Source: Candidatus Anstonellales archaeon (GTDB lineage: Archaea; Micrarchaeota; Micrarchaeia; Anstonellales; J096). Taken from it: DNA of 38,269 bases. The notes below the pieces were generated by a model. It was not told the DNA's origin and searched no databases. It saw nothing but the letters and a program-made list of their open reading frames with translations. Below, piece by piece: positions 1,835 to 33,977 of the stretch. The stretch spans positions 1-38,269 of the forward strand of contig JAVYLQ010000004.1 in NCBI GenBank assembly GCA_038740615.1, in the 5' to 3' direction. A program made the position numbers and the translations under genes. The stretch's first letter is position 1; each line of letters opens with the position of its first letter.

Positions 1835-1883
1835 GTGATGATACACAGGTTTGCTGATCAGTGATGACAAACTGGAGCGCTGA
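1835..1883 (+). ncRNA. Archaeal box C/D 2'-O-methylation guide sRNA (dual guide)
   Basis: Box C GTGATGA 1835-1841; 12-nt guide TACACAGGTTTG; D' CTGA 1854-1857; C' GTGATGA 1861-1867; 12-nt guide CAAACTGGAGCG; D CTGA 1880-1883. Perfect boxes, canonical spacing, intergenic, TATA upstream. Confidence 0.92.
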
Positions 1884-33882: not shown

Positions 33883-33884
33883 AG

Positions 33885-33977
33885 AGCCGGGTGTGGGAGT
33901 CGAACCCACCTACACCGGTTTCTACTTTGTAACTGGAGCATCTGCAGCCGGTTGCGTAGCCGCTCCGCCAACCCGGC
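33885..33977 (-). tRNA. tRNA-Cys(GCA) with a 22-nt intron at 37/38 (intron 33920-33941)
   Basis: Minus strand: GCCGGGT/ACCCGGC acceptor, U73, anticodon stem ACCGG/CCGGT, loop CT-GCA-G^A, T-arm GTGGG-TTCGACT-CCCAC; splice helix CUGC:GUAG with 3-nt AA^A bulge (relaxed BHB). Confidence 0.94.

Follow-up and report, generated by a model that had tools for sequence, protein, structure and literature searches.

A tRNA-Cys intron as a possible docking site for a stand-alone tRNA-Trp box C/D guide RNA in an Anstonellales archaeon

The retention of short tRNA introns by archaea is an old open question. The question is raised in a particular form by the tRNA-Cys gene of a Candidatus Anstonellales archaeon: its 22-nucleotide (nt) intron carries what reads as a copy of the anticodon loop region of a different tRNA, tRNA-Trp. 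What might such a copy do? The gene lies in a stretch of 38,269 nt (contig JAVYLQ010000004.1 of assembly GCA_038740615.1, positions 1–38,269), here called the window. An earlier note on the same DNA had proposed that the intron motif docks a guide RNA of the tRNA-Trp type, so that one ribonucleoprotein (RNP) could be anchored twice on pre-tRNA-Cys and methylate C39. Comparison of sequences gives good support to the docking idea. It is considered probable, on balance, that one small ribonucleoprotein (sRNP) serves both pre-tRNA-Trp and pre-tRNA-Cys, and that the tRNA-Cys intron acts as its second anchor for 2′-O-methylation of C39.

The genome of the window, termed G000, consists of 541,905 bases in 31 contigs and is 83% complete; contig labels such as C1, C3 and C5 refer to it. 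Sequencing DNA runs that match the window carry the label of hot-spring metagenomes. The parts of the tRNA-Cys gene are as follows.

33885 to 33977, minus strand: tRNA-Cys(GCA) gene with intron and discriminator U73 (cmscan, 43.6 bits; ARAGORN with introns)
33942 to 33977, minus strand: 5′ exon, ending in the anticodon loop C32–G37 (CUGCAG), with the anticodon GCA at 33943–33945
33920 to 33941, minus strand: 22-nt intron AUGCUCCAGUUACAAAGUAGAA at the canonical 37/38 position (ARAGORN; intron-less relatives; fold)
33885 to 33919, minus strand: 3′ exon

The gene displays a cloverleaf, the anticodon GCA and a discriminator U73. At a relaxed threshold cmscan gives a tRNA at 33885–33977 (43.6 bits) with a 25-nt insertion, and ARAGORN with introns allowed gives Cys(GCA) with a 22-nt intron. 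With its default settings ARAGORN miscalls 33884–33977 as tRNA-Leu(CAG), and an Rfam scan of the window at the gathering threshold missed the gene. Thus, routine annotation would lose or mislabel this tRNA-Cys. The intron is placed at position 37/38 because the tRNA-Cys loop of intron-less relatives reads CUGCAGA, and the 3′ bulge of the fold agrees with this.

The anticodon arm of the precursor reads ACCGG CUGCAG, AUGCUCCAGUUACAAAGUAGAA, A CCGGU GUAG on the minus strand. It contains the imperfect tandem that had been pointed out before, i.e. GCUGCAGAU (33948–33940) followed by GCUCCAGUU (33939–33931), which are identical at 7/9 positions, with CCA in the intron copy replacing GCA. The minimum-energy fold of the arm shows the anticodon stem, a 4-bp helix (CUGC/GUAG) and, at the 3′ splice site, a bulge of AAA. 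This amounts to the 3′ half of a bulge-helix-bulge only; the 5′ splice site is in a large open loop without an inner helix. A splicing endonuclease gene is present in G000.

Two other explanations of the motif were rejected. Alternative splicing of the gene to a tRNA-Trp (anticodon CCA) would require a second intron, the discriminator U73 is that of a tRNA-Cys, and a separate tRNA-Trp with A73 is present. Pairing of GCUCC with the D-loop GGAGC of the same tRNA does not hold in relatives: genomes G014 and G018 have GGAAC, and their motif is unchanged.

The putative partner of the intron is a double-guide box C/D small RNA (sRNA) encoded about 32 kb from the tRNA-Cys gene in the same window.

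1835 to 1883, plus strand: double-guide box C/D sRNA
1835 to 1841, plus strand: C box, GUGAUGA
1842 to 1853, plus strand: D′ guide UACACAGGUUUG, 12 nt, whose N+5 nucleotide pairs with C39 of tRNA-Trp and tRNA-Cys
1854 to 1857, plus strand: D′ box, CUGA
1862 to 1867, plus strand: C′ box, UGAUGA
1868 to 1879, plus strand: D guide CAAACUGGAGCG, 12 nt, whose N+5 nucleotide pairs with C34 of tRNA-Trp and with a C of the pre-tRNA-Cys intron
1880 to 1883, plus strand: D box, CUGA

The sRNA reads GUGAUGA-UACACAGGUUUG-CUGA-UCAG-UGAUGA-CAAACUGGAGCG-CUGA and all its boxes are consensus. It has the features of archaeal C/D guides, i.e. terminal C and D boxes, internal D′ and C′ boxes, two 12-nt spacers and a Watson-Crick pair at N+5. 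It is located in the gap between diverging open reading frames (ORFs), one on the minus strand ending near position 1830 and one on the plus strand starting at 1917, and there is an A/T-rich, TATA-like stretch approximately 20–30 nt upstream. Genes for the proteins L7Ae, Nop5 and fibrillarin are found in G000 with matches above cut-off to PF01248, PF01798 and PF01269, respectively. Nowhere in the window does an Rfam C/D family attain its gathering threshold, a result of little weight, as archaeal sRNA families are lineage-specific.

The tRNA-Trp(CCA) of the genome is encoded at C5:13193–13280, on a different contig from the sRNA. Its arm reads ACAGG CUCCAG, a 15-nt intron UUAGGUUGAGAAGAA, A CCUGU UAG. 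The D guide forms 9 bp, with G31–G37 and the two nucleotides that begin the intron, and has C34 at N+5; the D′ guide forms 8 bp, with the two nucleotides that end the intron and A38–U43, and has C39 at N+5. Since both guides pair with tRNA-Trp in this register, the sRNA is taken to be a stand-alone guide for positions 34 and 39 of tRNA-Trp. Among relatives, complementarity and the N+5 rule select these same two positions in all 26 genomes in which the sRNA and tRNA-Trp are both present.

These data partly bear out what the earlier note expected of the guides, which were read there, before the tRNA-Trp had been located, as matching tRNA-Trp at C34 and C39 and as coming from a free gene. The expected short tRNA-Trp intron without C/D boxes is also there. 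Its predicted AA at the 3′ end is present, but it starts with UUAG, not UUUG; similarly, the 3′ anticodon stem is CCUGU as foreseen, but UAG follows, not GUA. It is in tRNA-Cys that the GUA matched by the D′ guide is found. Therefore the view that the guides are purely of the tRNA-Trp type does not hold.

An apparent second intron in the T-loop of tRNA-Trp was seen in G011 (locus L072), G012 (L075), G008 (L137) and G022 (L046), and it is long in G008 and G012.

On pre-tRNA-Cys of this genome the two guides have the following sites.

33931 to 33940, minus strand: intronic docking site UGCUCCAGUU, a copy of tRNA-Trp G31–G37 plus two intron nucleotides, with nine Watson-Crick pairs and one G·U with the D guide
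33911 to 33921, minus strand: D′ guide target AAACCGGUGUA, the last two intron nucleotides followed by A38 to A46, with C39 (33918) at N+5 and G41 as the sole mismatch

The N+5 nucleotide of the docking site is the C at 33936, the first C of the CC in GCUC*CAG, and the copy GCUCCAGUU is 18 nt upstream of C39. The D guide would be unable to use the true anticodon loop of tRNA-Cys because G34 would face a G at N+5. The docking site is unpaired in the predicted pre-tRNA-Cys arm and is, on this model, accessible.

Among the 32 tRNA genes of G000, D guide runs of at least eight pairs are found in the tRNA-Cys intron (10 pairs, counting one G·U) and in tRNA-Trp (9 pairs), and in no other. When the intron sequence was shuffled, 0 of 1000 shuffles reached the observed D guide run. 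Predicted duplex energies are nearly the same on the two tRNAs: for the D guide −16.5 kcal/mol on tRNA-Trp vs. −16.4 on the tRNA-Cys intron, and for the D′ guide −10.4 vs. −11.5 kcal/mol on tRNA-Trp and tRNA-Cys, respectively. Genome-wide there are 170 12-mers with at least nine Watson-Crick pairs to the D guide and 304 to the D′ guide. Because such 12-mers are common, a single site alone is no proof, and the case rests on the presence of two sites in one pre-tRNA together with their conservation.

One 11-nt look-alike, UGCUCCAGUUA at C6:149, is antisense to the 5′ end of tRNA-Leu(GAG) and was set aside as a chance match. The region C6:140–165, comprising the 5′ leader and first base of this tRNA, reads UUAACUGGAGC; this is probably chance.

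Conservation was followed in 40 relatives, of which five belong to the genus of G000, 13 to its family and 22 to its order. In these, tRNA-Cys, the sRNA and tRNA-Trp were located by BLAST and sequence patterns. A second family (f9, genus g30) contributed five more genomes, four of them found through an order-wide pattern search and the fifth being G131. A tRNA-Cys call by ARAGORN with a 414-nt intron in G015 looked mis-joined to the 3′ half of another tRNA and was excluded from all counts. The pattern of D guide and D box gave matches in 35 of 41 genomes and one match with the reversed pattern as a control. A looser, class-wide pattern gave matches in 35 of 401 genomes with about 11 reversed-control matches. 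The eight extra loci that were checked were all without tRNA-Cys, hence only families f1 and f9 (genus g30) were counted.

The intron motif is widely kept, as the docking idea requires. There are 20 intron-bearing tRNA-Cys genes with the CCGG stem. The exact motif GCUCCAG is present in 14 of these, in families f1 and f9 (genus g30), and in ten of the 14 the intron begins with CUCCAG right after G37. Three further genes have variants that remain compatible through G·U pairs, i.e. GCUCUGG (G006, G012) and GCUCUAG (G020), and a convincing site is lacking in the other three (G017, G019, G030). In 16 of the 19 genomes that also have the sRNA, the D guide run is at least eight pairs and includes a Watson-Crick pair at N+5. 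Shuffle tests on 14 genomes gave 0/1000 in nine and at most 4/1000 in three; two were not significant (G019, and G029, which has a different tRNA-Cys stem).

Outside the site, the tRNA-Cys intron varies freely, both in its sequence and in its length, which ranges from 15 to 154 nt. The distance from the site to C39 downstream stays at 12–37 nt; this also holds for the 49-nt and 154-nt introns, in which the site is far from the 5′ splice site. Neither guide matches tRNA-Cys genes that have no intron or a different stem (G009, G013, G029). The sRNA was not found in G005 or G015, nor tRNA-Trp in G017, assemblies that are 77%–84% complete.

Orthologues of the sRNA could be parsed in 28 relatives. 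In G022 (L046), G023 (L127) and G029 (L052), which belong to three other families, the tRNA-Trp guide sRNA is directly downstream of tRNA-Trp, at approximately 45 to 800 nt. This suggests an older arrangement in which the two were linked or co-transcribed. A G+C-rich, apparently structured insert of 60–110 nt is found between the D′ and C′ boxes in G009 (L110), G013 (L047), G022 (L046), G024 (L040/L117) and genus g30 (L241–L246).

The guides vary together with both tRNAs. The nucleotides that follow GCUCCAG in the tRNA-Cys intron vary in step with both the start of that genome's tRNA-Trp intron and the 5′ portion of its D guide.

G000, G001 and G003: tRNA-Trp intron start UUA; tRNA-Cys site GCUCCAGUUA; D guide CAAACUGG
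G004: tRNA-Trp intron start UCA; tRNA-Cys site GCUCCAGUCA; D guide CAGACUGG
G002: tRNA-Trp intron start AUA; tRNA-Cys site GCUCCAGAUA; D guide AAAUCUGG
G020: tRNA-Cys intron ...AGGGU; D guide AACCCUGG

The tRNA-Trp and tRNA-Cys sequences of G005, where the sRNA was not found, equal those of G002. In an all-against-all matrix the cognate guide is usually, but not always, the best partner. The lineage-specific signal in the flanking nucleotides is therefore modest, and the covariation of the D′ guide with tRNA-Cys is stronger. The number of genomes in which each position of the D′ guide is paired is as follows.

tRNA-Cys, 19 genomes: N+1 in 7; N+2 to N+6 in 19; N+7 (position 41) in 0; N+8 and N+9 in 19; N+10 (position 44) in 19; N+11 (position 45) in 19; N+12 in 6
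tRNA-Trp, 26 genomes: N+1 in 9; N+2 to N+6 in 26; N+7 (position 41) in 24; N+8 and N+9 in 26; N+10 (position 44) in 13; N+11 (position 45) in 11; N+12 in 11

Where tRNA-Trp and tRNA-Cys differ at positions 44–45, as they do in 11 genomes, the guide matches tRNA-Cys. Position 44 of tRNA-Cys is G or A depending on the lineage, and the guide has C or U to match. On a fibrillarin tree of 28 genomes, the paired state of Cys-44 and the guide needs four changes, at least two of which are required by branches with good support. At position 43, both tRNAs change with the guide; the sole exception is G010, in which the guide forms a Watson-Crick pair with tRNA-Cys and G·U with tRNA-Trp. The D′ guide thus reads as a compromise, which follows tRNA-Trp at position 41 and tRNA-Cys at positions 44–45. 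Archaeal C/D RNPs are reported to make use of no more than 10 nt of their substrate and to modify substrates with 9–10 bp well (PMC7229835). The confinement of the conserved pairing to N+2 through N+11 fits this limit. Directly established are the sequences themselves, their complementarity, the conservation and covariation of this pairing, and the existence of the protein genes in the genome.

From this we infer assembly of the RNP, methylation of C39 and a dependence of the latter on the intron site, by the following scheme. The stand-alone sRNA would assemble with L7Ae, Nop5 and fibrillarin and act on two intron-containing pre-tRNAs. On pre-tRNA-Trp, both guides would bind genuine tRNA positions that span the exon-intron junctions. 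On pre-tRNA-Cys, the D′ guide would bind in the same register around C39, the mismatch at G41 being offset by the pairs at positions 44–45, and the D guide would use the single-stranded copy of the tRNA-Trp site in the intron in place of the true tRNA-Cys loop. The intron may therefore be viewed as an adaptor, which would provide a second anchor for the sRNP such that pre-tRNA-Cys is bound as well as pre-tRNA-Trp. C39 would be 2′-O-methylated before splicing, the RNP would then leave so that the splice-site structure can form, and the intron, with its own methylated C (33936), would be removed and discarded.

The order of the two sites also appears to suit a single RNP. Judging from the topology of the sRNA, and with the D site preceding the D′ site on the 5′ side, the 8-nt linker would need to span only the internal C′/D′ motif. 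The D-bound segment would have its 3′ end close to the C′ box, and the D′-bound segment its 5′ end close to the D′ box.

Several observations weigh against such a role. Position 41 of tRNA-Cys (G41, N+7), two nucleotides from the target C39, is never paired with the D′ guide (0/19 genomes), and this constant mismatch might block methylation; a mismatch at N+7 is also found on tRNA-Trp in genus g9 (G020, G030). Because the anticodon arms of tRNA-Trp and tRNA-Cys are nearly identical, part of the D′ match is shared sequence and not adaptation. The D′ guide, as far as can be read from the sequence, pairs about equally with mature tRNA-Cys, so that C39 might be methylated without help from the intron. 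Three of the 19 genomes have a weak intron site (G017, G019, G030; runs of 5–6 pairs), and the best one in G019 lies directly against the D′ site. The relatives do not count as independent cases, and the fibrillarin tree is built from one protein of 200 amino acids, with support below 80 on 9 of its 25 inner branches. Lastly, no RNA runs are listed that match the first 10 kb of the window, the part in which the sRNA lies.

The same two sites could also serve a chaperone or a timer. The sRNP would bind both of them to open the anticodon arm, to prevent misfolding at the palindromic CUGCAG or to delay splicing, and methylation would be a by-product. Chaperone roles have been proposed for double-guide sRNAs, and the evidence from pairing and covariation applies here as well. 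The mismatch beside the target in 19/19 genomes could disfavour catalysis, and the predicted arm, with its half-formed bulge-helix-bulge and its 5′ splice site in a large loop, agrees with such a need. A pure chaperone, however, needs no fixed register, yet C39 is exactly at N+5 in a Watson-Crick pair in 19/19 genomes, as it is on tRNA-Trp. Pairing is moreover limited to N+2 through N+11, which is reportedly the catalysis window; in work by Yang et al. from 2016 the ten nucleotides used are said to be these. Such a role is thus possible but unlikely. A guide that serves tRNA-Trp alone is more doubtful still. The matches to tRNA-Cys would then be functionless leftovers of common ancestry, of sequence exchange or of an old duplication of the loop region; indeed the two arms differ solely at the 29–41 pair and at position 34, the motif and the real loop form a tandem that looks like a duplication, near-matches to single guides are common genome-wide, and three lineages have weak sites. 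But leftovers would not be expected to persist across two families while other intron sequence diverges, to change in ways that stay G·U-compatible (G006, G012, G020) or to withstand the shuffle test (0/1000), nor would the guide be expected to follow tRNA-Cys at positions 44–45 in the 11 genomes that differ there, with at least two independent co-changes.

A decoy or sponge has been given the least credence and appears very improbable. Here pre-tRNA-Cys, or the excised and perhaps circular intron, would titrate the D guide and thereby tune the methylation of tRNA-Trp. The intron site does pair as strongly as the tRNA-Trp site by predicted energy, and excised archaeal tRNA introns can persist as circles (PMC7994747). 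This would explain neither the tracking of tRNA-Cys exon positions 44–45 by the D′ guide nor the constant distance to C39 in long introns, and an intron of 22 nt is unlikely to be a stable regulator. With these alternatives set against it, double anchoring of one sRNP remains the preferred reading of the intron motif. The match to tRNA-Trp, the conservation and the covariation all speak for this part of the original proposal; its premise of a pure tRNA-Trp guide has to be given up.

How does this arrangement compare with known systems? In euryarchaea the intron of pre-tRNA-Trp itself encodes a C/D guide (Haloferax volcanii; sR50 of Pyrococcus) that directs Cm34 and Um39 (PMC11408192, PMC4090602, PMC7994747). 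The sRNA described here is likewise a double guide for positions 34 and 39 of tRNA-Trp, and the known guide acts both on its precursor and in trans (same sources). Unlike it, the present sRNA is a separate gene and the tRNA-Trp intron is 15 nt long and box-less; furthermore, the engagement of a second tRNA through an intron element is not described in those three papers. A free C/D sRNA for C34 of tRNA-Trp exists in Pyrobaculum as sR26 (Lui et al. 2018, PMC6009581). Several tRNAs with sequence in common can be served by a single guide (PMC6009581, PMC7994747), but in the Pyrobaculum guides the sharing is of identical exon sequence (PMC6009581), and here it would be through an intronic copy of the site. 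Lui et al. scanned targets on mature tRNAs only and found dual guides on one tRNA to be rare (PMC6009581); target prediction of this kind misses interactions such as the present one.

With eukaryotic C/D small nucleolar RNAs (snoRNAs), methylation increases by as much as five-fold when there is extra complementarity beside the modified position (van Nues et al. 2011, PMC3116282). The logic of a second anchor is the same. There the accessory element is in the snoRNA and acts on permanent rRNA sequence (PMC3116282); here, in contrast, the second guide would anchor on a disposable intron site. Eukaryotes also have intron-dependent tRNA modifications, by Pus1 on tRNA-Ile and Trm4 on tRNA-Leu(CAA), in which modification of an exon requires the intron, which is spliced out afterwards (PMC4090602). 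The enzymes there are proteins that read precursor structure, with no guide RNA and no tRNA mimicry. In the literature searched, which left subscription journals mostly outside, there was no description of a tRNA intron as the docking site of a trans-acting guide or as a copy of the guide site of another tRNA. In the reviews consulted (PMC11408192, PMC4090602), the guide RNA within the tRNA-Trp intron is the sole role cited for an archaeal tRNA intron. If true, a disposable docking site that recruits the guide RNP of another tRNA would be a second, different function of archaeal tRNA introns. It would also show how guide RNAs become shared in shrinking genomes, and explain why the anticodon stems of two tRNAs evolve jointly with one guide.

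A possible mirror image of the Trp/Cys case is found in the same genome, as suggested by the complementarity of the following three genes.

C1:18917–18970, plus strand: second double-guide C/D sRNA (L141)
C25:2226–2319: elongator tRNA-Met (L140)
C16:691–791: tRNA-Leu(CAA) (L142)

The D guide of this second sRNA pairs with A31–G37 of tRNA-Leu(CAA) (7 bp) with C34 at N+5, and its D′ guide pairs with the intron tail and A38–G45, which puts U39 at N+5. A further site of 10–11 nt for the D′ guide lies inside the tRNA-Met intron, in 5/5 genomes of the window's genus that have both genes. This site was reached by 0–4 in 1000 shuffles. There are compensating differences between the tRNA-Met intron and the guide, i.e. 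UAUCC with GGAUA vs. AAUCC with GGAUU, and where the guide ends in G or U the intron has C or A opposite. Pairing of the D guide with tRNA-Met is limited to A31–A35 around C34, and here too the first mismatch is at N+7.

Outside the genus, the tRNA-Met intron (40–106 nt) has C/D-like boxes and a guide ..UAUGAGUN-CUGA to its own anticodon loop, with C34 at N+5. This element is present in G006 (L169), G007 (L150), G011 (L154), G017 (L152) and G018 (L157), an arrangement like that suggested for Nanoarchaeum (PMC3491384). In the window's genus the tRNA-Met intron is short and box-less. If this second case holds, the adaptor idea is general: tRNA-Met would borrow the guide of tRNA-Leu(CAA) by means of a copy of the 3′ anticodon-stem region of the latter, as tRNA-Cys would borrow the tRNA-Trp guide by means of a copy of the tRNA-Trp anticodon loop. 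It is proposed, tentatively and with rather less confidence than the Trp/Cys case itself, that short tRNA introns in reduced genomes such as these may be adaptor modules that copy the guide sites of other tRNAs, allowing a single double-guide sRNP to act on two tRNAs, and that this may be a selective reason for keeping them. There would be two instances here, the tRNA-Met case replacing an in-intron guide in the genus with the smallest genomes.

In all, G000 has five to seven canonical C/D sRNAs. Other canonical or near-canonical double-guide candidates are at C3:4215, C3:28700, C15:6769, C19:3033 (minus strand) and C29:5665 (minus strand). Among the tRNA genes, the set that was scanned, most of their guides have no target with a run of at least eight pairs. 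In three members of the window's genus, the fibrillarin gene is followed at a distance of approximately 2 kb by the sRNA for tRNA-Leu(CAA) (G000, C1:16388–16987 and C1:18917; G003, C3:44966 and 47422; G004, C4:5627 and 8194).

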